DNA from: an uncultured delta proteobacterium
GTDB lineage: Bacteria > Desulfobacterota > RBG-13-43-22
Direction: 5' to 3'
DNA: 64,000 nt
Assembly: GCA_963790475.1 (NCBI GenBank)
Contig: CAWBOS010000010.1
Location: forward strand, 1,728,001-1,792,000
Within the stretch, counting starts at the first letter, position 1. Every line of letters starts with the position of its first letter. Both the position numbers and the translations under genes were made by a program. Shown here piece after piece: positions 4,214-43,105 of the stretch. A model generated the notes under the pieces. The model was given only the letters and a program-made list of their open reading frames with translations. It did not search any database and was not told the origin of the DNA.

Positions 4214-7200
4214 TCACACATTCTCCGGGGTATTTCCCATCGCTCCCGGACGGCGATTTTCCCTCAACTTTTTCATGCGCAGCCTGAACCGGTCCAGATA
4301 GAGATACATCACGGGTGTCGTATAAAGGGTAAGCATCTGGCTGAATATGAGACCCCCCACAATGGCAATGCCCAGGGGACGCCTAAGCTCGGATCCGATG
4401 CCCCGGCCCAAGGCCAGAGGCAGCCCCCCCAACATCGCCGCCATCGTCGTCATCATGATCGGTCTAAAACGTAAAAGACAGGCCTGGAAAATGGCCTCCT
4501 CCGGGCCTTTCCCTTCTTTGCGCTCCGCTTCCAGGGCGAAATCGACCATCATGATACCGTTCTTCTTGACCAGACCGATGAGAAGGATGATGCCGATGAG
4601 GGCGATCATGCTGAAATCGATACGGAAGAGGAGGAGGGCCAGAAAGGCCCCCACACCTGCCGACGGCAGGGTCGAGAGAATGGTGATCGGATGCACGTAG
4701 CTTTCATAGAGCATCCCCAGCACGATGTAGACCGCAACCAGGGCGGCCAATATAAGCCAGGGCATGTTGGCCAGAGCGGACTGGAAGGCCTGGGCCGTTC
4801 CCTGAAAGCTGCCCCGGATGCTCCCCGGAAGTCCCATCTTCCGGGCGGCCTCCTCCATCTCCTTTACCGCCTCCCCCAGCGCCTTACCCGGCAGGAGATT
4901 GAAGGAGATGGTAACGGCGGGAAACTGACTCTGATGGTTGACCGCCAGAGAAGTCGCCTTGCGCTCGAACCGGGTAAAGGCGGAGAGCGGCACCATGTCC
5001 CTTGTCGCCGAACGCACATAAATGTCCCGAAGTGTGTCCGGTCTCTGCCAGAAAGCCGGTTGAACCTCCATCACCGTATGGTACTGATTGAGATAGGTGT
5101 AGGTGATCGAGACCTGCCTTTGACCGAAGGCGTCGTAAAGCGCATCGTCAATGGCCTGCGGCGTGATGTTGAAACGGGAGGCCGTGTCCCGGTCGATGAC
5201 CAGATTGGCCTCTAGACCCTTATCCTGCTGGTCGCTGTTCACATCCGCGAGTGCGGGGAGACGGCGCATTTGCTGCAGGACTCGCGGCGACCAGCGGTTG
5301 AGGTCGTCCAGGTTCTCTCCCTTGAGCGTATATTGGTACATGGCTCCGCTCAGCCTGCCTCCTATCCGCAGTTCCTGCACCACCTGAAGGTAGGTGGGAG
5401 CCCCGGGCACCTGACCTAATTTCCCCCGCAGTCGGCCGATGACCTCATTGGCCGTACTTTTGCGCTTCTCATTGGGTTTCAGAGCGATAAAGAGGCGGGC
5501 GGTGTTGGTGGTGGCGCCGCCCCCCCCCGAACTCCCTGTAAATCCGGCGACGTTCTCGACGTCCCGATCCGCCTTGATAATGTCCACCACCTGTTTGAGC
5601 TTCGCCCGCATGGCCTGGAACGAGATGTGCTGCTCGGCAATGATGGAACCGGTAATACGCCCGGTGTCCTGTTCAGGGAAAAACCCTTTGGGACTGATGA
5701 TGAAGAGGCCGATGGTGACCACCACACAGGAAACGACCAGACTCAGCATGAACCGGGGATGACCCAGGGCCCAGTGCAGCGTCTGTTCGTATCGAGCGCG
5801 CATCCCGTTGAACAGGCGTTCGCTCATCTTATAAACCCGGCCATGCGCGCCGGTCTTTCCCTGTTTAAGGAGCTTGGCGCACATCATGGGGGTCACCGTC
5901 AGAGAGGCCGCCAGTGAAACAAGCACGGCCACACTCAGCGTCACGGCAAATTCGCGCAGCAGGCGGCCGGGAATGTCCCCCATCAGAAGAAGAGGGATAA
6001 AGACGGCCACCAGAGAAACACTCATGGACAATACCGTAAAAGTGATCTCCCGCGAACCGATGATGGCCGCTTCCATAGCGGATTTGCCCATTTCCATATG
6101 CCGCGTCGAATTTTCAAGGACCACGATGGCGTCGTCGACGACAAAGCCGGTGGCAATGGTGAGGGCCATGAGGGAGAGGTTGTCCAGGTTATAACCGAGC
6201 ATATACATAACGGCAAAAGTGCCGATGAGGGAAAGGACCACGGCTACGGCCGGTATAATGGTGGAGCGGATATTCCGGAGAAAGCCGAAGACGACCAGGA
6301 TAACCAGAAAGAACGAAATCATGAGGGTGATCCCTACATCCCTCAGGGATCCCCGGATAGGCGGGGTGCGGTCCTGCACAACGGTTGCCTTGACTGCGCC
6401 GGGCATGGCCGCCTCCAGTTGAGGGATGAGAGCACGGACCCGGTCCACGGTTTCGATGATGTTGGCCCCGGGCTGGCGGAAGATGATCACCATGATGGCT
6501 GGCTTCCCGTTTACCAGGCCGGTGGCCCTGACGTCTTCCACAGAATCGGTCACCTCGGCCACGTCGAGGAGACGTACGGCCGCCCCCGACCGATAGGAGA
6601 TGATTACCGGCTCGTATTGACTGGCTGTGCGTAACTGGTCGTTGGTCTGTATTTCCCAGGCACGCTCCTTGTCCCACAATTGTCCCTTGGGCCGGTTTAC
6701 ATTGGTGCTGCCCAGCACGCCCCGGATGTCCTCCAGACTGATGCCATATTTGTTCAAGGCCGTGGGGTTGACGTCCACACGAACGGCAGGCAGCGAGCTT
6801 CCCCCGACGATGACCTGGCCCACGCCTTCGACCTGAGACAATTTCTGCTGCATGATGCTCGAGGCGGCATCAAACATCTGCGCCGTGGTGACCACATCAG
6901 AGGTTAGGGCAATCAACAGGATCGGAGCATCGGCCGGGTTGATCTTCCGATAAAAAGGGTTACTCGGCAGATTGGCCGGAAGGTATCCTCGCGCCGCGTT
7001 GATCGCGCCTTGTACGTCACGGGCCGCTCCATTGATGTTACGGCTCAGATCAAACTGCAGCACAATGGAAGTGGAGCCACGGTAACTGGTGGAGGTCATC
7101 TCATTGACGCCCGCTATCCGTCCGAACTGACGCTCAAGGGGCGCGGCCACCGAGGTAGCCATGGTCTCCGGGTCCGCTCCGGGCAGGGCTGAGAATACGG

Positions 7201-28901: not shown

Positions 28902-28973
28902 GATTAAAAGTTCCCCCCAAAAAACACCGATCATCGGTTTCGGATTACAACCGATCTGATGAAAAGGAGAAAT

Positions 28974-31401
28974 ATGTCTAATAGAGCCTTAGAAGGTATT
29001 AAGGTGGTGGAATATGCCACCATGGTTTCCGGCCCCTATTGCGGAAAATTATTAGCGGACCTGGGGGCCGATATCATCAAAGTGGAACCGCCTGAAGGCG
29101 ATCCCTCCCGCCGCTGCGGCCCTTTTCCTAAAGAGGGAAAACACCCGGAAAAAAGCGCCCTCTTTCTCTATGCCAACACCAGCAAGCGCGGCATGACCCT
29201 GGATCTTGAAAAGCCGGAAGGACTCGAGGCCTTTAAAAAACTCCTCTGCTGGGCAGACGTTTTCATCGATAATCAGCCTGTCGGTTTTTTCGATCAGTAT
29301 AATCTTGGCTGGGAGGAAATTCACCGATTAAACCCCCGGCTTATTTATGCCTCCATCACCCCTTACGGCCGGACCGGCCCCAGGGCCAAGGCCAAAGGGG
29401 ATGAGCTGACGCTCATCCAGGCCGGTGGTGAGGGCAATCTCATACCGACCCGTTCCTTCGATTTGTCATTCCCTCCGGTCAAGTTCGGGGGATACCAGGT
29501 CGGCTATCACGGGGCCTTGAACGCGGCTGTGGGCATCATGGCCCTGATTTTAGGCGGAATGAAGACCGGTAAAGGACACCTGCTGGATATCTCTCTGCAG
29601 GAATGTGTTATCAACCTGCTCCCCGGAACTTTGCACAACCACCGCTACGACGGTTTCAACTGGGGCCGGGTCCCGGACCGGCCCCCGGCCATGGGCCGTA
29701 TGGAAACCAGTGACGGATATCATTACTCTGGGGGCCAATGACGATCACCATTTCCGGGCCCTGCGGGAACTGATGGGCAAACCGGACTGGCTGGCCGACG
29801 ACCGTTGGGATAACCGCGTTTATCGGGCCAACCATCTGATGGAAATCGCTCCTCAGTTGGATGCCTGGATGAAGCAACAGAAGAAACAGGATATCTACCA
29901 TAAGTTGGCCAAAGCGGGCATCCCGGTGGGGCCGATCAACTCAGCCGAAGAAGTCATGAACAATGAACAGTACAAAGCGCGAGGGTACTTCACCGAGGTC
30001 GACCATCCTGTAGCCGGTAAATACCAATATGCCGGTTGGCCTTACCGGTTGTCCGCTTCCCCGCCCAGGGTCTTCAGACCGGCCCCGCTCCTGGGACAGC
30101 ATAACGAAGAGGTCCGTCGGGAAATCCTCGACCAGGCCATAGAAGGGGCTGAGAAACCCGGCCAGGGCGCACCAGACCTGAAACTCCCTCTGCAGGGCCT
30201 GAGGGTCCTGGATTTTTCCTGGGTTTGGGCCGGTCCCTACGCCACCATGATGCTGGGCAATCTCGGGGCTGAAGTAATCAAAGTGGAAGGGCACGCCGAA
30301 CGGATATTGTTCGCCGGGCCGTCATGTGGCCCAGGTGGGAGCCGGAACCCCATCAGGTGCCGCCCAACCAGGGTTTGAGCTACAATTCCGTCAATCGGGA
30401 CAAGAAGAGTCTGACCCTGGACTTGAGCAAACCGGAAGGCATCCAACTGGCCAAGAGGCTGGCGGCTATGAGCGATATCGTCATCGATAACATGCGACCG
30501 GATGCCATGACCAAAATGGGTTTGGGTTACCAGGACCTGATCAAGATCAAACCGGACCTGATTGTGGTTTCCTCCTCCGGACGGGGTCATAATGGACCGG
30601 AAACGAACTATCTCGGTTTTGCCCAGATTCACCAGAGCGTCTCGGGTGTGGCTTATATATCCGGTTATCCGGAAGATCATCCCACCTTCGGGTCCCTGGG
30701 TCACACGGATATCACCAACGCCGTTACCACGGCCTTTGTCACCCTGGCCGCGATTCATCACCGGGAAAAGACGGGGGAAGGACAGTTCATCGATTATTCC
30801 CAGTGCGAAGGTTCGACCTGTCTGATCGGGGAGCAACTGCTCGGCTACCTGATGACCAACATTATTCCCGAACGCCAGGGCAACCGCCATCCCGAATATG
30901 CCCCGCATAATATGTATCAGTGCTGGGGCGTTGACCGTTGGCTGGCCCTGGAGGTCCATACCGATGAAGAATTCCGGGCCCTGACCCGGGTCATGAACAA
31001 ACCTGAGTTAGCCGACGATCCTCGGTTTGCCCGGCAGGTCCCCCGAAAGAAAAATGAAAAAGAACTGGATGGCATCATCGGGGAATGGACCCGCCAAAGA
31101 GACCGGGATTGGATGGTCGAGGAAATGTTAAAAGCCGGTCTGGCCGCCGCACCCTCACGGGACGCCGAAGATATTTATGCCGATCGTCACCTGAAGGCCC
31201 GGAATTTCTTCCTCAAGATTCAACATCCCGAACTGGGAGAACTGGAATTGGCCGGATTGCCCTGGAAAATCAGCGACACCGAATTGACCAGCCGGTCATG
31301 CCCCTTTGCTGGGGGAGCATAATCAATACGTGCTGCAGGGACTCCTGGGCTTAAGTGAATCGGAAATAGTCACTCTTCGTGCCAAAGATATTATCATGTA
31401 A
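28974..31401 (+). CDS. Tandem two-domain class III CoA-transferase (CaiB/BaiF) interrupted by three single-base indels
   Basis: Domain 1 ALEGIKVVE..GPYCGKLLADLGADIIKVE; domain 2 PLQGLRVLDFSWVWAGP..LGAEVIKVE; indels near 29721, 30294 and 31295 join the pieces through APLLGEHN to TAA 31399. Confidence 0.82.
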
Positions 31402-34869: not shown

Positions 34870-35119
34870 TTTCCTCCTCCTTTCAAAATCCCAATAGGTC
34901 TTTCTACTGATTCAGATTTTATTACAATTTACTAAAATGGGACATCTTCCTTCTACCTGTTAATAAAATGATAGTAAAGAAGATTAAACCACCAATTTGG
35001 CTGGAGTGAACCCGATAGGCGCTGTCTGCCAAGCGTATTATTCAAAACCAATTATAATGAACTTAGGTAGTTACGTTTAGGTGATTTTATATTTTATTGA
35101 ATAAGCTGAAACTTCCTGA

Positions 35120-35154
35120 TATTATCCAGAAAACAGTTCAATAATATGTTAGGC
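35120..35154 (+). other. attI-like site (GTTAGGC core without an attC palindrome)
   Basis: AT-rich ATTATCCAGAAAACAGTTCAATAATAT-GTTAGGC before the first cassette gene; core matches the complement of the cassette-1 R'' at 6/7 positions. Confidence 0.5.
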
Positions 35155-35219
35155 GTCCTGTTGGAGGGAACAAGGAAGTGAATGGGGCATGCGAAAATGA
35201 TTATTATAGGGAGAGCGCT

Positions 35220-35654
35220 ATGAACGAATCGAAAGTAGAGAAAAAGGCGTCGGAGCCGTTAGTCGGCAAGGAGCGGGTTCAGATTCTGCTCCACGAATAC
35301 AACGGCCTCCGCAACGAAATCATCCACCGGACGAACAACTTATTCCAGGTTATCGGCGTCGGGGTGATAGTTCTCGGTTGGCTTACGAATAGTCGTGATT
35401 TTGACTGTAAACTTATCATCTCGCTGCTTGTAGGCTTAGTGACACTTGCCTGTCTTCTCTGGTTAATCCATCGCGATATAGACAAGGCCGCGGAAAGATT
35501 GGCAGAGATTGAGGATTATGTGGACAAGGAAACCGGTGAGTGGTATCTGTTGCGGTGGGAGAGGCTGTGGGGCGGACGAAAGACTGGATACTGGTTACGA
35601 GCGCGTCCTTTGCCAGTTCCTCCTCCCAGACCCAAACCGTCAGATGGTGCATGA
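35220..35654 (+). CDS. Cassette gene: hypothetical two-TM membrane protein
   Basis: LLHEYNGLRNEI helix followed by two hydrophobic segments; flanked by att sites. Confidence 0.75.
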   Translation: MNESKVEKKASEPLVGKERVQILLHEYNGLRNEIIHRTNNLFQVIGVGVIVLGWLTNSRDFDCKLIISLLVGLVTLACLLWLIHRDIDKAAERLAEIEDYVDKETGEWYLLRWERLWGGRKTGYWLRARPLPVPPPRPKPSDGA

Positions 35655-35742
35655 ACTGGGCAAAGCGGCCGGAAGGGCGAAGAGGACGTTGGTGAAATAT
35701 TGAAATTTGATGAGGACAACCTATTGATTTGTAATACGAATT

Positions 35743-35803
35743 TCCTAACCAGCGCGTTCAGCGAATCCGCGCCATGCGCTTCTCGCTGACGCCTATGTTA
35801 GGT
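35743..35803 (+). repeat. attC site (61 bp)
   Basis: R'' TCCTAAC, arms CGTTCAGCGA/TCGCTGACG with one extrahelical base, R' GTTAGGT. Confidence 0.85.
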
Positions 35804-35821
35804 CCTTGATGGATAGCAACC

Positions 35822-36610
35822 GTGCGTCTTGAGATATCGTGTAGCAAATGCTCGGATCAGATCGCCCCCGGTGAATCACGCACCGTTTATTCGCGCATAT
35901 GCTCGGTGTGCAACGACGGAGTCTACGAAATCGAATGTCCGCAGGGGCATCGCACGATAACGGTCCTTCGCACCCCTAAGCATGAGGTACTTTACACCAT
36001 CGGAGCCAATGCCCTTCTAGACGGATATTTCAGAGACGCCATTGCTTCGTTTGCAGGAGCCTTGGAAAGGTATTACGAATTTGCTCTGAGGGTCATCTCA
36101 CGACAAAAGGAGATCGCGCCTGATGCATTGGAGTCTATTTGGAAAGTGATGTCGAGGCAATCAGAAAGGCAATTCGGTGCGTTCATCGTTGTCTGGTTGC
36201 TGGAAACCGGCAAACCGTATACTTCGCTACCGCAAGCACAGATTGATAAGCAAACCACTCTACGAAATGATGTCGTGCATAAAGGGAAGATCCCTACCCT
36301 TAAAGAATGCGTAAAGTATGGTGAGTACGTTTTGGATGTAGTAGCGCCCATCGAGCAGGTGCTACTTGCTAACTACGCCGCAGCACATAAAGACGAGTGT
36401 TTCGCCCACGCCCGGGACGTTAGCAAGGCCAAGTCTTCGCCAATCACTGTGCTAAGTATATTTTCCGTGTTCAATGCTGCACTGCAGAGCGCCCATAAGC
36501 TGGAACCGGCCCTGGCTAGGCTCCGTAAACTTCGGGAGCGTGATGGCTATCCGATCGTTGGGTCAGAGTATTCGAAGAGCCGGGTTGTTACTCATCTAAT
36601 AAAGTCGTGA
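35822..36610 (+). CDS. Cassette gene: N-terminal Zn-ribbon plus HEPN-like domain protein
   Basis: CSKC..CSVC..CPQGH; DGYFRDAIASFAGALER helix; Rx4H motif LRNDVVH. Confidence 0.65.
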   Translation: MRLEISCSKCSDQIAPGESRTVYSRICSVCNDGVYEIECPQGHRTITVLRTPKHEVLYTIGANALLDGYFRDAIASFAGALERYYEFALRVISRQKEIAPDALESIWKVMSRQSERQFGAFIVVWLLETGKPYTSLPQAQIDKQTTLRNDVVHKGKIPTLKECVKYGEYVLDVVAPIEQVLLANYAAAHKDECFAHARDVSKAKSSPITVLSIFSVFNAALQSAHKLEPALARLRKLRERDGYPIVGSEYSKSRVVTHLIKS

Positions 36611-36617
36611 CAACATG

Positions 36618-36678
36618 GCCTAACCCATTACTCCAGGGGACGCTCCTATCGTCGCGCCCCTAAGTTCAGGCGTTGCCT
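36618..36678 (+). repeat. attC site (61 bp) with non-canonical R'
   Basis: R'' GCCTAAC 7 nt after the stop; arms ACTCCAGGGG/CCCCTAAGT; GTTGCCT. Confidence 0.75.
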
Positions 36679-36808
36679 CTAACGGGTCCATGTCCCGGTC
36701 GGCGCCGCCGCAGCGACACCAACCAGGCCATTGGACACCGATGTCATTCGTTTGCATGGGCCTTCGGCACCGCAAGCTTCGTGCCAGGGGTCAACGCCGC
36801 ATTGGGCG
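36669..36808 (+). repeat. ~140-bp long attC-like element, copy A
   Basis: Colinear with 38380-38516; ends GGTCAACGCCGC-ATTGGGC. Confidence 0.7.
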
Positions 36809-36827
36809 TATTACAAAGGAGGTATCT

Positions 36828-37196
36828 ATGGGAGATGCTCAGTTTGAGTTCGTATGGCCAGGGCTACCTGTTGCAATCCCAGGACTAATCATTGTTTTAG
36901 TGTTGCCAGCGTGGCTGATGTGGATTGTCTTTAAGCACATGTCGTTTTCAACTTGGAAGAAGGTGTTTCTGGTACCGGTTTGTTTTATTGGTCCTTTCCT
37001 CGTTACGGCATTATGGCCTTTAGCTCTGAAGGTAAGCGGAATCATCGGGTTCACAGGCCCCGGGGACTACCAACCTCCATATGGTTGGTATGCCCAAGAA
37101 TTGTTTGGCCGTTTCAGCGACTACGTTTGGGCGAGCCTCACAGGCTTGGCAATCTTGGGCTTTCGGGGCCTCGTCAAATCGAAAACCAGGCATTAG
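36828..37196 (+). CDS. Cassette gene: small three-TM membrane protein
   Basis: AAGGAGG RBS before ATG 36828; three hydrophobic segments. Confidence 0.75.
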   Translation: MGDAQFEFVWPGLPVAIPGLIIVLVLPAWLMWIVFKHMSFSTWKKVFLVPVCFIGPFLVTALWPLALKVSGIIGFTGPGDYQPPYGWYAQELFGRFSDYVWASLTGLAILGFRGLVKSKTRH

Positions 37197-37225
37197 CCAC
37201 CGGTGGCTGAACTCTATCGTTAGCC
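37180..37225 (+). repeat. Short degenerate attC overlapping the gene end
   Basis: Palindrome AGCCACCGGTGGCT then GAACTCTATC-GTTAGCC. Confidence 0.55.
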
Positions 37226-37299
37226 CTCAATATGGGTAATGGGAATGCTCTTTAATAATTTAATTGGCACCATATTTGTAGGAGATTAATAATCATGAT

Positions 37300-37352
37300 A
37301 TGCCAAGGACAGCAAGATTGATGCTCCCGGCTCTTTTCGCCATGTAACGGGA
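37300..37352 (+). mobile_element. N-terminal remnant of a REP-associated/Y1 tyrosine transposase
   Basis: MPRTAR-(frameshift)-DAPGSFRHVTG resembles the MPRxARIDAPGxxHH start of RAYT-like transposases. Confidence 0.5.
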
Positions 37353-37480
37353 TCGGATTTTCTGCGGAGGGGGGAGAATCAATCGAAAAGTGGAATATTA
37401 TGCTTGCAGGTTATGTTAATAAATTTTAAAAGAGCGTCTCGCCTTGATTCCATTGGGAGACACGAGGCTACACAAGACGT

Positions 37481-38326
37481 ATGGGCGATCATTACATTCC
37501 ACAATACTATCTCAGGGGGTTCTGTCGAGGATTTGGTCGCCGGCTGTGGGTGTACGATAAGAAAGAGAACCGTAAATTCCCGACCCAGGTAAAGAGCATT
37601 GCCAATATATGTGGTCTTTACCCGCAGGATCTCGAGAAATACCTTTCGGAGGACATTGAGAATCCTGCGAACCGGGTGCTTGATAAGATCCATAACCGAA
37701 AGCCTCTAACTTCAGATGATAAAATTATCCTTTCGAACTACATTGCAGTGATGTGGAAAAGGGTTCCAGAAGGCAAGACTCGTTTAAAGGAGCGTGCACC
37801 CAAGATTGCCGAAGATTTGCGTACAGCATTGCACCGACAGTTAGATGAGGCTCTCTTAAAAAGCCCCGAAAAGGAAACCATCGCTCAACGCCGAAAAGCA
37901 GAAATTGATGAGATTCTTGATAGATTCTCCTGTGATCCTCCAGAAGAAATCTGGCACAACGTAATACCTATTGACCGAACGCCTCGAATGGCTCAGAGTA
38001 TTGCCACGATGACATGGCAGTTCATTACATTTGATGAAAAGCCCGTCTTCCTAACAGGAGACAACCCTGTATTCTATTTTCGTTCTCTTGGAATTGGGAA
38101 GATCGAATCTGAGTTGTCTTTTCCTGTTTCTAGCTATGTGACCCTCTGGGCAACCCGAAGGATTGATCTCCCAGAAGGTTATTTCCCCACAAGTATGGCA
38201 ATCGTTAAAGAAATGAACCGCAGAATAGCAAGTATTTCTACGAGGTATGTCTTTCATGCAGAAGAAGAGGATTGGATTCTCCACTTCCTTGCAAAGAAGA
38301 ACTGGAAGCTCAATAGAGTTGTATAA
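37481..38326 (+). CDS. DUF4238 domain protein
   Basis: HYIPQYYLRGF N-terminal motif, FLTGDNPV, FPVS. Confidence 0.82.
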   Translation: MGDHYIPQYYLRGFCRGFGRRLWVYDKKENRKFPTQVKSIANICGLYPQDLEKYLSEDIENPANRVLDKIHNRKPLTSDDKIILSNYIAVMWKRVPEGKTRLKERAPKIAEDLRTALHRQLDEALLKSPEKETIAQRRKAEIDEILDRFSCDPPEEIWHNVIPIDRTPRMAQSIATMTWQFITFDEKPVFLTGDNPVFYFRSLGIGKIESELSFPVSSYVTLWATRRIDLPEGYFPTSMAIVKEMNRRIASISTRYVFHAEEEDWILHFLAKKNWKLNRVV

Positions 38327-38351
38327 GGTACTTCCAAAGGAAAGATAGGTG

Positions 38352-38516
38352 GCGACAACATCGTCGTTCGCCGATGCGGGGTTGTCCTACCGGGTTCATC
38401 CCCCGGTCGGCACCAGAGCATCTGCACCATCCTGGCATTGGATACCAATATCACTTGTTTGCATGGGTTCTTCGGCCAAAAAAGCTTCGTGCTAAGGGTC
38501 AACGCCGTATTAGCCG
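38352..38516 (+). repeat. Long attC-like element, copy B
   Basis: Starts GCGACAAC just after the DUF4238 stop; colinear with 36669-36808; ends GGTCAACGCCGT-ATTAGCC. Confidence 0.7.
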
Positions 38517-38633
38517 TCTTGATTTACCGAGGAGAGATGCACAGCTCGGGGGAGAAATGTTCTGCCCGGACCATCTTGCTTCCAAGACAGGGCGCTCATC
38601 TTTGCATTCGGTTCAATCATTCGGAGGTATGTA

Positions 38634-38918
38634 ATGCTGTTCATGGTCATTGAACGTTTCAAAGACAACGACATGGTGCCCATCTATCGGCAGGTGCGGG
38701 ATGGATCAAGGCTTCTTCCCGGCGGGTTAAAGTACATCGATAGCTGGGTCGAGCCAAACTTCAGCCGATGCTTTCAGCTCATGGAGTGCGACGACGTTCG
38801 CCTCTTTCAGCAATGGGTGCTCGAATGGCGCGGATTCGGCGTGACCATAGAGATAGTTCCTGTTGTCGGCAGCGCAGATACGCAGGCCGTCGTGGCGCCT
38901 TACCTCGACAAAACGTGA
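38634..38918 (+). CDS. DUF3303-like small protein
   Basis: GGAGG RBS; MLFMVIERF...GLKYIDSWVEPNFSRCFQLMECDD...EIVPVV. Confidence 0.78.
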   Translation: MLFMVIERFKDNDMVPIYRQVRDGSRLLPGGLKYIDSWVEPNFSRCFQLMECDDVRLFQQWVLEWRGFGVTIEIVPVVGSADTQAVVAPYLDKT

Positions 38919-38991
38919 AACCGGTCGCCGTATTGCTCTCGGCATTGGGTAATGGAAAATCTCTTTAATAATTCAATAGGAATAACCATAT

Positions 38992-40317
38992 ATGAACCCT
39001 ATCTGTATTGTAGACGATGAATCTTTCATCTGTTCCACAGTAGCGAGCATCCTGAAAGACGAGGGGTATCAGGCCATCGTATTTCCTGACGCAGAGAGCT
39101 TCTGGCAGGGGCTCGATACAATGGAGCCCTCTCTCGCCCTGCTGGATATCTGGCTCCCGGGCATAGATGGAATGCAACTCCTGAAAAATCTGCATGGCCG
39201 ATTCCCGGCACTCCCCATTATCATGATGAGCGGACATGCCGGCATCGAGACGGCGGTAGCCGCGATAAAGGCCGGTGCCTACGATTTTCTGGAAAAACCG
39301 CTGCATCTGGAGGTTTTACTCGACAAGGTGAAGTCTGCCCTTAATCATCGATCTTCCGGGGGCGGCGCAACCCTGCCTTCGGATACGAGGCTTGAGATCG
39401 CCAGTGCGGACCTTTTGATGCCTCCCGGCATGGTGGAGGTAGTGAATTCACCCCAACCTCAACGCGCCCTCAGGGGGAATGTTGTCCTTAACGGTATAGG
39501 GCTTATGAGCGGCCGGAACACAGGTATCATCCTGAGTCCCCTGGGAATAGACGAAGGGATCGTCTTTCAAACTCTTGACGGTCAAACCATCCGTGGACAT
39601 ATCACCTCCCTGGGGAATTTTTCCCAAACGGTCTCATCGAAGACCTTCTCTGCCAACTCCACCACCCTGGACAACGGCAGGCAGCGGGTGCGCACGGTTG
39701 AACACCTGATGGCGGCTCTTTCCATGTTCGGCATAACCAACGTGCTCATAAAGGTCGACGACGAAGTACCGAACATTGACGGCTCCGCCAAGGACTTCAG
39801 CGACCTCATAGCACAGGCAGGGATAGAGGAACAGCCAGCCTTCACCAGGGTCGCTGTCATCCGCCAGAAGCTCGGAGTGGGCAGCGAGGAGAGGCAAGAA
39901 AAGCATCTCTATGCGGAGCCCTTTGAAGGGTTTGAAATATCAATGAGGGTTGACTACCCTCCACCCATAGGGGAACAGATTCTCACTTTCAATCCTGAAA
40001 AAGGATCTTTTGCCAATGATATAGCCCCTGCCCGCTCATTCAACACCTTTGAGAATATCGAAATGGCCCAGAAGCTGGGAAAGGTCGGTGGCGGGTATCT
40101 CCATTCCCACATCATCATGTACGACGGCAAGGTCATCAATACGGAACTCCGTTATCCCGACGAATTCGTGCGTCACAAGATATTGGACCTGATCGGAGAC
40201 CTCTACCTCCTCGGTTTCTCCATCAGAGGACGCATTACGGCCAACATGACCTCTCACGGTTACAATCAGGCCCTGGTGGAACGCTTATACCAGGCTATTC
40301 AGAGCAGCTCCAAATGA
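38992..40317 (+). CDS. lpxC: Fusion of a response-regulator receiver domain with UDP-3-O-acyl-GlcNAc deacetylase LpxC
   Basis: Receiver: D8/D9, D52 (LLDIWLP), S80, K102. LpxC: QRAL..GIGL.SG, TVEHLMAAL, EVPNIDGSA, IAPARSF, LRYPDEFVRHKILDLIGDL, SHGYN. Confidence 0.9.
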   Translation: MNPICIVDDESFICSTVASILKDEGYQAIVFPDAESFWQGLDTMEPSLALLDIWLPGIDGMQLLKNLHGRFPALPIIMMSGHAGIETAVAAIKAGAYDFLEKPLHLEVLLDKVKSALNHRSSGGGATLPSDTRLEIASADLLMPPGMVEVVNSPQPQRALRGNVVLNGIGLMSGRNTGIILSPLGIDEGIVFQTLDGQTIRGHITSLGNFSQTVSSKTFSANSTTLDNGRQRVRTVEHLMAALSMFGITNVLIKVDDEVPNIDGSAKDFSDLIAQAGIEEQPAFTRVAVIRQKLGVGSEERQEKHLYAEPFEGFEISMRVDYPPPIGEQILTFNPEKGSFANDIAPARSFNTFENIEMAQKLGKVGGGYLHSHIIMYDGKVINTELRYPDEFVRHKILDLIGDLYLLGFSIRGRITANMTSHGYNQALVERLYQAIQSSSK

Positions 40318-40370
40318 AGGCGATAAAAGAACTTAATCGGAAATATGCGGCAGGATCTTACAGCTAGGAA

Positions 40371-40560
40371 ATGAATCGGTCCATTGTGCATGTGGCGATA
40401 GTGGTTGAAGACTACGACGAGGCAATCGACTTTTATACCACGAAGCTGGGTTTCGAGCTGATTGAGGACACCTACATCCCGAAACAGAACAAACGTTGGG
40501 TATTGGTTTGAGGACCTGTATGGTAACCTCTGGGATCTGTTGGAGCACAAGGACGGACAC
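40371..40560 (+). pseudogene. VOC/glyoxalase-family gene with an internal deletion
   Basis: MNRSIVHVAIVVEDYDEAIDFYTTKLGFELIEDTY..KRWVLV joined out of frame to the C-terminal FEDLYGNLWDLLEHK. Confidence 0.8.
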
Positions 40561-40602
40561 CGTTTTTCACAAAAGAGATCACAACCGTGCGTGCCGCTAA
40601 TC

Positions 40603-40661
40603 GACGAACAAGCAGGCTCTACAACGACGGTCCCTGACCAGGCGTGAACGACCGCTTGGGA
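40603..40661 (+). repeat. Possible degenerate attC
   Basis: GACGAAC-AAGCAGGCTCTACAACG...GCGTGAACGACCGC-TTGGGA between the VOC remnant and the TA pair. Confidence 0.3.
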
Positions 40662-40715
40662 TAAGTTGAAGTCGGCTCAGTTTAGTGCTATTCTATGAAA
40701 AAAGGAGGGAATACT

Positions 40716-40904
40716 ATGTCGATAATCATGGAAAAGGAGGAAGCCCATAGGATCATCGATCGGATGCCGCCAAATGCTACTTGGGATGATTTGATGCGAG
40801 AGATTTATGTCCGAGAGGCAGTTGAGCGCGGGTTGGCTGACAGCAATGCAGGCCGGACCAAGGACGTGAAAGAGGTCCGGGCGAAGTACGGTTTACCGGA
40901 ATGA
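40716..40904 (+). CDS. Putative antitoxin
   Basis: GGAGG RBS; IDRMPPNATWDDLM..IYVREAVERGLAD..AGR; ATGA overlap with the toxin; TTGAAG-N17-TATTCT promoter at 40666-40694. Confidence 0.78.
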   Translation: MSIIMEKEEAHRIIDRMPPNATWDDLMREIYVREAVERGLADSNAGRTKDVKEVRAKYGLPE

Positions 40905-41197
40905 AAGTCCACTGGACTGACACCGCTGAAGGTCATCTTGACGCAATCCATTATTACATTGCTCAGGATTCGCCCGAATACGCCAGGCGCATGGTAGATC
41001 GACTTACCCGAAGATCTCAGCAAATTGCCAAATTCCCTTTCTCAGGCCGAAGAGTTCCCGAAAATGATGTTGACCAGATTCGAGAAGTGATTTAAGGTTC
41101 CTTCCGTATCATTTACAACATAAAGTCAGACCAGATTGATGTACTGGCTGTCATCCATGGAGCCATGGATTTGCTGGGTACATCTGAAAAAGAATAA
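40901..41197 (+). pseudogene. RelE/ParE-family toxin with an in-frame nonsense codon
   Basis: MKVHWTDTAEGHLDAIHYYIAQDSP..FPFSGRRVPE..IREVI*GSFRIIYNI..IDVLAVIHG; TAA at 41093-41095. Confidence 0.82.
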
Positions 41198-41218: not shown

Positions 41219-43105
41219 ATGATACACTGGATTCTCTATTGGGTCGTTGCTTTTATCGCTTTGATTTTTATCCTTCGAGGTTTTTGTTTGATTGGCCCCA
41301 ATCAAGTCGGCATCCTTACTAAAAACATGTTTGGCAAAAAAATGCCGGCGGGACAAATAATCGCCCGTCAAGGGGAAATAGGGGTTCGGGCCAGGACTCT
41401 GATGCCCGGGCTCTACTGGAGGTTACCTATCATTTGGACCTTTACCAAAGTTCCGGTGGTGACGGTAGAGGTTGCCAGTATCGGTATCGTCGAATCCATC
41501 GACGGTGAACCACTCCCTAAGGGCCGGGTCTTAGCCGACGAAGTCGAGTGTAATCAATTTCAAGACGCGGAGATGTTCTTAGCCAACCATGGGAGGAAGG
41601 GACCGCAGGTTGGAATTCTACGCCCGGGCACCTACCGGATCAATTCCAAACTGTTCAATATCACCAAAGCCCCCGCGGTAAAAATAGATGAGAATACTAT
41701 TGGTATCGCCGTTGCTAAAGATGGCATTCCCTTACCGACCGGCTATGTCATCGCCCCTAAGGCCCTAAAAGATGACGGGTCCGAAGCAGACCACAAAGCT
41801 TATCAAAACGGACAGCTCTTTATCGATAGCCAAGGATACCGGGGACCGCAGTTGGATACCCTGCAGCCGGGAATATATTTCATCAATCCGAACTTATTTG
41901 ATATCAAAATTGAAGACGTAGCCGAGGTCCTTCCGGGATATGTGGCCGTAATCAGGTCCAACGTGGGTTTGGAGTTGGAGAGAGCACTCGAAGGGCCCGA
42001 GGGAACTACTAAAGAAGGGAGAATGGGTGGTCCGATCCATGAAGATGTTGAGAAGATACTGATAACCGATAAATACACCCGCGGCATTTGGAGAGAGCCG
42101 ATAGCCCCAGGGAAATACAATCTGAATACGATTGCTTTCTCACCCTATCAAGTGCCTACTTCCGCCGTTACCATCGATTGGGCAAGCGAGGGAAGAATCG
42201 GGACGGAAGTAAAGGGAGTTAAACCAACGGAGGCTATGGCTGCTGGGGTCCTGTACAGTTTTGATCCCTTGAAGGTGACTTCTAAAGACGGCTTTCAACT
42301 GGAAGTCAATGTTCGAATGGTGATTCGAATTCAGCCGGGCAACGCGGCCTACATCATAGCCAGATTCGGGTCGGTGGCCAATCTGATCGATCAAATCGTA
42401 CATCCGCTGATCGATTCATCTTTCAGGAATAAAGCCGGCGAGAAAAAAGCGATTGATTTTTTCCAAAGCCGGACGGACCTGCAAACCGAAGCGCTGGTAC
42501 ACGCCAAGGAAAGATTTTCCGAGTACAACGTCGAGGCTCAAAACTTACTCATTGCTTATATCGATATACCTAAGGATTTGTTGGACACTCAAACTAAGAA
42601 GGAGATTGCCAATCAGCAGCAAGCTCAGTATGACCAGGAAGCCATGGCTCAAGAAAAACGCATTGCGGTCATGGAGAAATCGTCCCGGGCGGATAAACAG
42701 AAAGATGTTATTGATGCCAAATTATCCATAGACATCAACAATGACCGGGCTGAGGCCAAAGTTAAGGAAGCGGACGGTAACAGGCGCTCTATGATTCTCC
42801 AAGCTCAAGGGACCAAAGAATCTACCATACTGGTGGCTGATGGCAATTCTTACAAAAGCAAGATCGAGGGCGACGGTGTTGCCGCCGCCTACAATGCCCA
42901 GAAGGAGGCCATTGGTCAGCAGAATGTGGCCATCATCAAACTCATTCAAGAGATAGCGGCTGGTAAGATTCAGATTGTGCCCCAGGTCCTGGTTGGAGGT
43001 GGGGATGCCTCAGCCAGCGGAAACCTTTTCAATGCCTGGATGTCGCAGATGATTTCTCAAAACGTACCGAAAAATGAGGGGAAAGAGATAAAAACGAGCG
43101 GCTGA
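41219..43105 (+). CDS. Long SPFH/flotillin (band 7) family protein
   Basis: N-terminal TM, repeated GPQ..LxPGxY.IN units, TSKDGF.LEV.V, FGSVANL, C-terminal coiled coil. Confidence 0.85.
   Translation: MIHWILYWVVAFIALIFILRGFCLIGPNQVGILTKNMFGKKMPAGQIIARQGEIGVRARTLMPGLYWRLPIIWTFTKVPVVTVEVASIGIVESIDGEPLPKGRVLADEVECNQFQDAEMFLANHGRKGPQVGILRPGTYRINSKLFNITKAPAVKIDENTIGIAVAKDGIPLPTGYVIAPKALKDDGSEADHKAYQNGQLFIDSQGYRGPQLDTLQPGIYFINPNLFDIKIEDVAEVLPGYVAVIRSNVGLELERALEGPEGTTKEGRMGGPIHEDVEKILITDKYTRGIWREPIAPGKYNLNTIAFSPYQVPTSAVTIDWASEGRIGTEVKGVKPTEAMAAGVLYSFDPLKVTSKDGFQLEVNVRMVIRIQPGNAAYIIARFGSVANLIDQIVHPLIDSSFRNKAGEKKAIDFFQSRTDLQTEALVHAKERFSEYNVEAQNLLIAYIDIPKDLLDTQTKKEIANQQQAQYDQEAMAQEKRIAVMEKSSRADKQKDVIDAKLSIDINNDRAEAKVKEADGNRRSMILQAQGTKESTILVADGNSYKSKIEGDGVAAAYNAQKEAIGQQNVAIIKLIQEIAAGKIQIVPQVLVGGGDASASGNLFNAWMSQMISQNVPKNEGKEIKTSG

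Follow-up and report, generated by a model that had tools for sequence, protein, structure and literature searches.

A phosphorylation-sensing receiver (REC) domain and LpxC, the enzyme that commits a cell to making the lipid A of its outer membrane, are joined in one intact reading frame in the genome of an uncultured delta proteobacterium (GTDB lineage Bacteria; Desulfobacterota; RBG-13-43-22). The gene lies in a stretch of 64,000 nucleotides (the window; assembly GCA_963790475.1, contig CAWBOS010000010.1, positions 1,728,001 to 1,792,000). Such fusions are common in sulfate-reducer relatives and suggest a direct kinase switch on membrane lipid synthesis. We found no paper on such a fusion in the literature, although its listing in response-regulator censuses or in a supplementary table cannot be excluded. 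The observation made in an earlier note from the sequence alone, namely an uninterrupted 441-aa protein with a complete receiver and a full LpxC domain, is confirmed. Its interpretation as direct two-component gating by a possibly acquired second lpxC is only partly supported.

Architecture and genomic setting of the fused gene

The features of the locus are summarized in the table below. All residues and motifs that the earlier note had listed (D8, D9, D52, S80, K102, TVEHL, HKILD, TSHGY and ARSFNT) are present in the translation, but the linker comprises about 43 residues by Pfam borders and not about 35. Both Pfam matches are well above their cut-offs (27 bits for PF03331 and 30.2 bits for PF00072). 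The NCBIfam model TIGR00325 (lpxC) is passed only narrowly (199.6 bits, cut-off 187.25). The best named match of the receiver is NtrX (NCBIfam NF051870), but the protein does not qualify as a member of this equivalog family since only residues 3-118 match (109.1 bits, cut-off 600). In a single-chain AlphaFold2 model both domains are confident, but the model says nothing on how they touch. A homodimer prediction with two copies returned no answer (score 0.00) and nothing is concluded from it.

Features of the locus and the evidence for each (positions refer to the window)
Position	Strand	Feature	Evidence
38992..40317	+	CDS of the 441-aa REC-LpxC protein (type B), stop codon included	One uninterrupted ORF with ATG start; two Pfam domains
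39001..39330	+	REC domain, residues 4-113; acidic pocket D8/D9 (39013-39018), phospho-acceptor D52 (39145-39147), switch residues S80 (39229-39231) and F99, K102 (39295-39297)	PF00072 Response_reg, 96.4 bits, E 1.5e-27, profile 1-110 of 111; these residues never vary among 81 type-B copies (counts of 78-81 because of gaps; D52 in about 79); closest solved chains are NtrX receivers 4d6x (E 2.3e-24) and 5m7n (E 1.4e-23)
39331..39459	+	Linker, residues 114-156; 120-140 predicted disordered	AlphaFold2 pLDDT 30-37 for residues 120-140; mean identity to the window 62% here, against 83% (REC) and 85% (LpxC) among 81 copies
39460..40290	+	LpxC-type zinc deacetylase domain, residues 157-433; E237/H238 (39700-39705) and H395-K396-x-x-D399-x-x-x-D403 (40174-40200) hold the zinc ligands, Lys and Asp; H422 (40255-40257) is the catalytic His	PF03331, 242.8 bits, E 6.1e-72, profile 1-267 of 268; aligns to P. 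aeruginosa LpxC chain 4fw3_A, E 8.5e-42; these residues invariant in 81 of 81 type-B copies
40030..40047	+	ARSFNT in place of the usual ARTFGF, plus M172 (39505-39507) where canonical LpxC has His, and N355 where others have Asp/Glu: pocket signature of the type-B clade	ARSFNT invariant in 81 of 81 type-B copies; other LpxC groups have T, then G/A/C and F/L, at these columns, His at the M172 column in 126 of 134, and D/E/Q/H at the N355 column
34889..40701	.	Strain-specific segment that carries the gene; its other ORFs are an unknown 262-aa ORF, a 122-aa ORF, DUF4238, DUF3303 and a glyoxalase fragment	No strong DNA match in 13 genus relatives, apart from dispersed repeats; Pfam of the ORFs
40371..40511	+	Truncated glyoxalase/VOC gene fragment (46 aa) just downstream	PF00903, 39.9 bits, profile positions 2-38 of 121 only
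40695..41197	+	Small antitoxin-position ORF (40695-40904, no Pfam match) and a ParE-type toxin gene broken by an in-frame stop at 41093-41095	ParE_toxin profile 1-58 before the stop and 63-88 after it

The zinc ligands His79, His238 and Asp242 of E. coli LpxC (PMC10254716) correspond by alignment to H238, H395 and D399 of the window protein. The catalytic residues Glu78 and His265, together with Asp246 and Lys239, correspond to E237, H422, D403 and K396, which are also invariant in all groups of the tree described below. From their sequences both the receiver and the deacetylase look functional.

The substrate pocket, in contrast, is not the canonical one. At the columns of Thr191, Gly193, Phe194, Lys262 and His19 the window protein has S349, N351, T352, M419 and M172. 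N351 and T352 mark the whole type-B clade (all 17 rows of the tree alignment), the Thr191 column is S in 16 of these 17 rows, the His19 column is L/M, and D/E197 is N. A review places Phe194 in the hexose pocket and Lys262 in the phosphate/uracil site of E. coli LpxC (PMC10254716, section ‘Structure of LpxC’). These changes at otherwise near-invariant positions mean that the substrate may not be the standard one, and type B might be a neofunctionalised deacetylase which keeps the zinc chemistry and the acyl tunnel but acts on a different acylated sugar nucleotide or glycolipid, still under receiver control. In that case it would not be a second LpxC in this genome. The Pfam scores of type B (243-252 bits, against 322-358 for the canonical copies in the same genomes), the narrow pass of TIGR00325 and the coexistence of type B with another LpxC in 6 of 10 other genomes searched and in the window's genome agree with this view. 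We nevertheless regard it as unlikely. Type B is the only LpxC-family hit in the remaining 4 of these 10 genomes, three of which hold LpxB, so it must supply LpxC activity there unless the assemblies miss a gene. The residues aligned by hand to the acyl-tunnel positions stay hydrophobic (F353, I356, L370, I375), the Asp-aromatic pair of the nucleotide site is kept as D-Y, and M at the Lys262 column is also the commonest residue in the main fusion clade (25 of 62). Type B thus likely works as LpxC.

No kinase or lpx gene was found among the ORFs of 110 aa or more that were scanned between 26.5 and 52.1 kb of the window (not every ORF was included), which agrees with the earlier note. Its assignment of the gene to a mobile cassette region is borne out only in part: the gene lies in a strain-specific segment, flanked by the truncated glyoxalase gene and the interrupted ParE gene, but not in a demonstrable cassette array. 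No integrase or transposase was found there among the ORFs scanned. The 135-nt repeats of the region are dispersed (12 copies in the genome, many in genus relatives), do not flank the gene and have end motifs of opposite polarity to those of an attC site (5' RYYYAAC ... GTTRRRY 3'), so the idea of an integron gene cassette was rejected. A search with Rfam detected only a tRNA in the window.

Decayed neighbours and an estimated contamination of the genome bin of 9.68% could point to an assembly chimera or a decaying pseudogene. This possibility, of which the earlier note had named only the chimeric join beforehand as a refutation, is refuted by the intact frame, by the same fusion in 80 independent assemblies and by a REC-fused paralog on the same contig. 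Short, low-depth contigs of other sequencing runs cover the REC-linker-LpxC border and no joints were reported, but they show no expression, and no RNA run was found to contain the gene.

Distribution and relationships of fused LpxC proteins

The fusion is not a singular oddity. The same architecture is found in all 120 best database hits (83-93% identity), and at least 80 species-level genomes hold the type-B protein at 74-95% identity, including, by record title, the cultured strains Desulfoprunum benzoelyticum DSM 28570, Desulfopila sp. IMCC35006 and Desulforhopalus sp. IMCC35007. About 100 of 401 sampled genomes of the phylum carry REC-LpxC or REC-AAA+-(HTH)-LpxC. The fusions form a large family in Thermodesulfobacteriota, whose members are also labelled Nitrospirota, Nitrospinota and Entotheonellia. 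The databases name these proteins either ‘LpxC’ or ‘NtrX’, never both, which hides the architecture from users. Some of the long fusions are automatically named NtrX by JGI.

Proteins with the order REC-Sigma54_activat-AAA_lid-LpxC exist, some of them with HTH_8 before LpxC, and the fused protein P0127 equals P0128 minus its AAA+ part, with 73-78% identity on both sides of the deletion. Like NtrX, the AAA+ part of the long fusions lacks GAFTGA (0 of 21). In the phylogenetic reconstruction the fused LpxC domains fall outside the canonical stand-alone clade (support 98), with the main fusion clade (95) and the type-B clade (100) both separate from it. The window protein thereby belongs to a REC-(AAA+)-(HTH)-LpxC family, defined here by an NtrC/NtrX-like receiver N-terminal to an LpxC domain that groups outside the canonical clade. 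The join of the type-B clade to the main fusion clade is only weakly supported (46), so one origin of all fusions is not shown. In our best explanation the family began as a whole NtrC/NtrX-type regulator (REC-AAA+-HTH) joined end to end with LpxC and repeatedly lost the AAA+ and HTH parts, leaving REC-linker-LpxC.

The genome has no canonical stand-alone lpxC. Its only other LpxC, the housekeeping ‘type A’ elsewhere on the same contig, is also REC-fused. The window copy is a divergent accessory paralog found in 2 of 21 family genomes. It is 73-84% identical between genomes whose canonical LpxC is 41-51% identical, with the exception of two related strains (68% canonical against 79% type B). 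Together with its position in a strain-specific segment this speaks for horizontal acquisition, and the suggestion of the earlier note that the gene is an acquired extra lpxC is supported. No neighbour is conserved across 80 type-B loci: the commonest neighbour family is an ABC ATPase in 15 loci, and a hybrid kinase occurs in 8.

The REC and LpxC domains are equally conserved among the type-B copies, and D52 is kept in 57 of 59 other, diverse fused proteins, whereas two (P0141 and P0157) lack the acceptor Asp. These two, and the lack of a conserved kinase neighbour, could indicate that the receiver is a phosphorylation-independent module, i.e. a permanent dimerisation or folding partner left over from the ancestral regulator on which no kinase acts. 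This is very unlikely, because all five phosphorylation residues and the Phe switch residue are invariant across type-B copies that have diverged to 74% identity, while pseudo-receivers usually lose some of these residues.

Fused LpxCs have very short C-terminal tails after the LpxC domain (median 7 aa for 48 REC-LpxC and 6 aa for 17 REC-AAA-LpxC, against 26 aa for 69 stand-alone proteins). In E. coli, where LpxC is turned over by FtsH with LapB and YejM/PbgA, the C-terminal end is needed for degradation by FtsH (reference listed in PMC3333781), and another handle for turnover would therefore be needed in the fusions. The receiver might then control the amount or place of the enzyme rather than its catalysis, with phosphorylation marking REC-LpxC for proteolysis, protecting it or recruiting it to the membrane. 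This alternative appears doubtful, since 27 of 69 stand-alone LpxCs also have tails under 15 aa, so that a short tail is not special to fusions, and none of our data speak to stability or location. A search for LapB with PF18073 was uninformative because the model also hits Gram-positive control genomes and the hit in the own genome lies in a 94-aa frame.

Relation to two-component control of lpxC

In D. vulgaris the regulator DVU2934 has lpxC as its single target (PMC3333781), and in D. alaskensis the kinase Dde_3000 signals to the sigma54 regulator Dde_3003, whose only target is lpxC (PMC4045070). This system (Dde_3000 / DVU2931 and Dde_3003 / DVU2934), from the same broad lineage and with an NtrC-family receiver, is one of the closest known counterparts, but there regulator and enzyme are separate proteins and the regulator binds DNA and changes lpxC transcription. 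The same layout is found in sister genera of the window's organism. Genus g3 has the order lpxC-DUF4390-ntrY-sigma54 regulator-NAD kinase, and a sigma54 -24/-12 motif and a TGTG-N10-CACA palindrome lie upstream of lpxC in 4 of 4 loci of genera g2 and g3. The regulator next to ntrY in the sister genus has GAFTGA and both Walker motifs, so it is NtrC-like. The window's genus keeps DUF4390-ntrY-NAD kinase but lacks the regulator in 8 of 8 genomes examined (the own genome and seven of eight loci compared, the eighth being G001 of genus g2), and in 7 of those 8 it lacks lpxC there. No sigma54 motif precedes the window gene, and the DNA-binding and AAA+ parts are gone. The two best matches in the own genome to the receiver of the sister-genus regulator are type A (52%) and the window gene (45%).

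The best explanation, which we hold with moderate confidence, is that the gene encodes an orphan response regulator with an LpxC-type zinc deacetylase as output domain. A histidine kinase would phosphorylate D52, and the switch of the receiver (S80, F99, K102) would change how the receiver sits against or pairs up the deacetylase, whereby the committed step of lipid A synthesis would be turned up or down at the protein level. The best kinase candidate is the intact NtrY-like kinase of the window's genome (G000:C12:823900-826131) which has lost its own regulator, and the guess of an NtrY-like kinase in the earlier note fits this. Such direct action would replace the circuit of kinase, sigma54 regulator and lpxC promoter found in the sister genera and demonstrated experimentally in Desulfovibrio. 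The architecture, residue conservation, distribution, gene-order changes and promoter motifs are shown by the present analysis, whereas phosphorylation and the direction of its effect, the identity of the kinase, and the activity and substrate of the enzyme are inferred from them. The kinase assignment rests on the gene-order history of one family and applies most directly to type A and not to the window copy. DUF4390/NtrY is not a general partner, as it was found in 1 of 5 other genomes with fused LpxC and in 4 of 5 type-B genomes, but in the latter never adjacent. A comparison of receiver helix 1 for kinase specificity was not decisive.

Response regulators with enzymatic outputs such as CheB (REC-methylesterase), PleD/WspR (REC-GGDEF) and RpfG (REC-HD-GYP; RpfG-type proteins are discussed in bioRxiv 10.1101/2021.11.05.467447) share the N-terminal receiver, flexible linker and C-terminal enzyme, and probably the same logic of relieved inhibition or induced pairing. 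Here, however, the output is a lipid A biosynthetic enzyme, an output for which our literature searches found no description. Another natural fusion of LpxC, the bifunctional LpxC-FabZ (NCBIfam NF009667, PRK13188), carries a C-terminal dehydratase of the same pathway instead of a signalling domain, and the window protein matches only its LpxC part (169.8 bits, cut-off 465).

Implications for the control of lipid A synthesis

LpxC catalyzes the committed and most tightly controlled step of lipopolysaccharide synthesis and is a drug target. A more far-reaching view, which remains tentative, is that a dedicated circuit of kinase, sigma54 regulator and lpxC promoter has been collapsed into a single polypeptide in about a quarter of this phylum, so that the kinase now phosphorylates the committed enzyme itself. 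Type B would then be a portable form of this switch that has crossed between phyla, has displaced the canonical LpxC in some Desulfobulbaceae and carries a remodelled sugar pocket. These ideas are directly testable, since cultured strains carry the gene, one of them, Desulfoprunum benzoelyticum DSM 28570, apparently as its only LpxC. The family offers a rare step-by-step record of a transcriptional circuit turning into a post-translational one, from the regulator beside the gene via the regulator fused to the enzyme to the receiver only. The known control modes of LpxC are proteolysis in enterobacteria, which is likewise post-translational but proceeds through a C-terminal degron and not through phosphorylation, and, in Desulfovibrio, transcription through a dedicated two-component system. 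A receiver domain built into the enzyme would be a third, direct mode.

The receiver–LpxC fusion and its occurrence

The gene under study codes for a single open reading frame of 441 amino acids with an ATG start and combines two domains in one polypeptide. Pfam detects a receiver domain (REC) at residues 4-113 (96.4 bits) and a complete LpxC domain at residues 157-433 (242.8 bits, profile positions 1-267 of 268). The lpxC equivalog of NCBIfam is passed only narrowly (199.6 bits against a cut-off of 187.25), and the best named match of the receiver is NtrX, over residues 3-118 only. In comparison with solved structures the C-terminal part aligns to LpxC of P. aeruginosa (4fw3_A, E 8.5e-42) whereas the N-terminal part aligns to NtrX receivers (4d6x, 5m7n). 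The receiver and catalytic residues that the earlier note had named for this fusion are all present, and its observation is confirmed.

The fusion is real. All 120 best hits in a collection of 5.8 billion proteins carry both Pfam domains at 83-93% identity and 98-100% coverage. A scan of one genome per species gave 343 pattern matches, of which 300 encode a relative, and the best 80 were kept, at 74-95% identity over the whole protein; by record title they include cultured strains. Short contigs from other sequencing runs cover the REC-linker-LpxC border without joints, but this is weak support. The genome itself has only two LpxC-family matches, both located on the same contig. The second one (here denominated type A, 455 aa, in contrast with type B for the gene under study) is also a REC-LpxC protein, is 39% identical to the window protein over its full length and keeps the canonical ARTFGF motif. 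There is therefore no stand-alone lpxC in this genome, although LpxB is present.

In a sample of 401 genomes of the phylum, 57 genomes gave a match spanning both the receiver and the LpxC part of the window protein, two of them being cut by contig ends. About 46 more have their LpxC match inside open frames of 450-837 aa, and the remaining stronger matches lie in frames of about 290-380 aa (the matches were counted by eye among the stronger ones). Open-frame length alone is unreliable in the high-GC genomes. The architecture was checked by domain search in 25 loci, and all the long ones are REC-LpxC or REC-AAA+-LpxC. In most of these genomes the fused gene is the only LpxC match at E <= 1e-28. 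The names given by the source databases are either "LpxC" or "NtrX" but never both, and the organism labels reach Nitrospinota and Candidatus Entotheonellia.

Ancestry of the fused proteins and the type B clade

The long forms show the order REC-Sigma54_activat-AAA_lid-LpxC. Three of ten scanned proteins (the metagenomic P0125, P0127 and P0128) possess in addition a Fis-type HTH_8 above the cut-off just before LpxC. The ancestor was therefore a whole NtrC-family regulator joined end to end to LpxC. Whole-regulator fusions exist as REC-AAA+-HTH_8-LpxC and REC-HTH_8-LpxC (these three proteins and the loci L105 and L106), and a protein that keeps a DNA-binding helix-turn-helix next to LpxC might act as both regulator and enzyme. 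P0127 (491 aa, REC-HTH_8-LpxC) is collinear with P0128 (735 aa) except for the missing AAA+ part, at 73% and 78% identity on the two sides. Among 21 AAA+-bearing forms none has a GAFTGA motif, 13 keep a Walker A motif and 1 keeps a Walker B motif, i.e. the AAA+ part is decaying. In a tree of 151 LpxC domains the canonical stand-alone proteins form one clade (support 98), REC-LpxC and REC-AAA+-LpxC are intermixed in another (95) and type B forms a third (100). The join between the last two is weak (46) and a further small REC-LpxC group of 7 sits elsewhere, so a single fusion event as well as several remain possible; moreover the rows were chosen by similarity to the window protein, which biases the sample.

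Among 81 copies of type B the receiver residues D8, D9, D52, S80, F99 and K102 never vary, and the catalytic residues E237, H238, H395, K396, D399, D403 and H422 are invariant. The clade has its own pocket signature with L/M at the His19 column and ARSFNT in place of ARTFGF, both fixed in the 81 copies, and with N at the D/E197 column; in the other groups those columns are almost invariant the canonical way. In E. coli LpxC, a review places Phe194 in the hexose pocket and Lys262 in the phosphate/uracil site (PMC10254716). Two stand-alone proteins, P0123 and P0167 (290 and 283 aa, each with its own start Met), carry the ARSFNT signature without a receiver and group with the type B clade.

Type B is found in 2 of 21 genomes of the window's family, namely in the source genome and in G005. 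It has no conserved neighbour in 80 loci: after the gene's own shadow ORFs the commonest neighbour family occurs in 15 of them. DNA similarity to other loci ends about 14 nt before the start codon and 30-80 nt after the stop. In the window the gene lies in a strain-specific segment whose surroundings and repeats are summarized in the table below.

Features of the window and of the compared regulatory locus (window positions unless stated otherwise)
Feature	Position	Strand	Observation
REC-LpxC gene (type B)	38992-40317	+	
Strain-specific segment	34889-40701		no DNA match in 13 genus relatives among the stronger matches, apart from dispersed repeats; next to a glyoxalase fragment and the broken ParE gene
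DUF4238 gene	37481-38326		281 aa; shares the segment with the REC-LpxC gene
DUF3303 gene	38634-38918		94 aa; shares the segment with the REC-LpxC gene
Dispersed repeat of about 135 nt	36669-36810 and 38378-38520		12 copies in the genome, often in pairs 0.8-2.4 kb apart, and many in genus relatives; 9-nt complementary ends and a long predicted hairpin; 5 of the 12 copies carry an exact sigma54 -24/-12 consensus on the reverse strand at the same position; no Rfam match, not attC-like
Second short repeat of 35 nt	37233-37267 and 38946-38980		86% alike; follows two different small ORFs, each preceded by the 135-nt repeat; second copy ends 11 nt before the REC-LpxC start codon
Dispersed element of about 100 nt	35049-35151		matches at 84-91% in at least five genus relatives (positions 7050-7154 of the query)
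ParE-type toxin gene	40901-41197		in-frame TAA at 41093-41095, after which the ParE profile continues; the upstream 69-aa ORF, in antitoxin position, has no Pfam match
SPFH/Band 7 protein gene	41219-43105		628 aa; just right of the segment; 84-89% DNA identity in six genus relatives
Family III CoA-transferase, apparently split	28959-30378		ORF 28959-29741 matches profile positions 1-226 of 366 and overlaps ORF 29605-30378 in a different frame; intact paralog at 30324-31322; may be a frameshift or a sequencing error
lpxC-DUF4390-NtrY-like kinase-sigma54 regulator-NAD kinase cluster (locus L113)	G005:C17:99500-106500 (contig of genome G005)		conserved cluster, also at loci L114, L115 and L124; sigma54 promoter motif and TGTG-N10-CACA palindrome upstream of lpxC

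By record labels, which are the depositors' own, the 80 loci split into 31 Nitrospirota, 31 Thermodesulfobacteriota, 14 "delta proteobacterium", 2 Myxococcota and 2 Pseudomonadota. In a tree reconstructed from 78 of the 81 copies (three under 430 aa were dropped) the Nitrospirota-labelled rows form the basal grade, and all others, including the window copy, sit in one nested clade (support 97) with two Nitrospirota-labelled exceptions. For five genomes that hold both genes, type B is 73-84% identical where canonical LpxC is only 41-51% identical; the two related strains give 79% and 68%, respectively. We interpret this as a few transfers between lineages plus unusually strong constraint. Of 10 other type B genomes searched, 6 also have a canonical copy and 4 have type B alone (G408, G413, G415 and G417), and three of those four have LpxB. 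G408 holds the locus titled Desulfoprunum benzoelyticum DSM 28570. Unless these drafts miss a gene, type B would supply the LpxC activity there.

The lpxC regulatory locus in related genera

In the sister genus g3 (3 of 3 loci read) the gene order is lpxC, DUF4390, an NtrY-like kinase, a sigma54 regulator and NAD kinase, and this regulator has GAFTGA and both Walker motifs. DUF4390 is present in 20 of 21 family genomes and always lies next to the kinase in the loci read. Upstream of lpxC in 4 of 4 loci of the genera g2 and g3 there is a sigma54 -24/-12 motif, 17-30 nt before the start codon, and the palindrome lies about 112 nt further up. This mirrors what was shown by experiment in Desulfovibrio, where DVU2934 binds only upstream of lpxC (PMC3333781) and where in D. 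alaskensis a kinase mutant raises lpxC alone, with a sigma54 site and a regulator site centred at -101 (PMC4045070).

In the window's genus (g1) DUF4390, the kinase and NAD kinase are kept but the regulator is absent in 8 of 8 genomes examined, i.e. the source genome plus seven g1 loci. Also lpxC is absent there in 7 of those 8. Only the locus of genome G014 keeps lpxC without the regulator, and both upstream motifs are missing in it; a further genome outside this count, G010, also shows a stand-alone lpxC next to DUF4390. The kinase in the window's genome is intact with NtrY_N, HAMP, PAS, HisKA and HATPase_c. The two best matches in that genome to the receiver of the lost regulator are type A (52%, 122 bits) and the window gene (45%, 106 bits), and no sigma54 motif precedes either fused gene. 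The LpxC part of type A is not derived from the local lpxC but groups with fused forms of other families. The kinase and sigma54 regulator circuit at lpxC in the sister genera is the one that the fusion probably replaces.

Proposed mechanism and relation to known proteins

The architecture, the residue conservation, the distribution and the gene-order history are shown, whereas the phosphorylation of D52 by a kinase, the subsequent effect of the receiver on LpxC output and the LpxC activity of type B are inferred. In this view the receiver would alter LpxC output upward or downward, be it by relief of occlusion, by pairing or by stability, and for this genome the orphan NtrY-like kinase is the best candidate, more securely for type A than for the window copy. 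Fused forms lack the long C-terminal tail that is common in stand-alone LpxC (medians of 6-7 aa against 26 aa), but this is only a hint because 27 of 69 stand-alone forms also have tails under 15 aa. The interpretation of the earlier note, which had proposed a direct two-component gating of lipid A synthesis by a possibly acquired second lpxC, is supported in part.

Full-text literature searches found no paper on a receiver-LpxC fusion, although they did not extend to supplementary material or to the response-regulator census literature. The architecture is certainly visible in domain databases since precomputed Pfam pairs list both domains, so what is new is the reading and not the existence of the sequences. 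Response regulators with enzymatic outputs are already known, and here the output is an LpxC domain. We regard the gene as a horizontally acquired member of a large, apparently undescribed family of receiver-fused LpxC enzymes.
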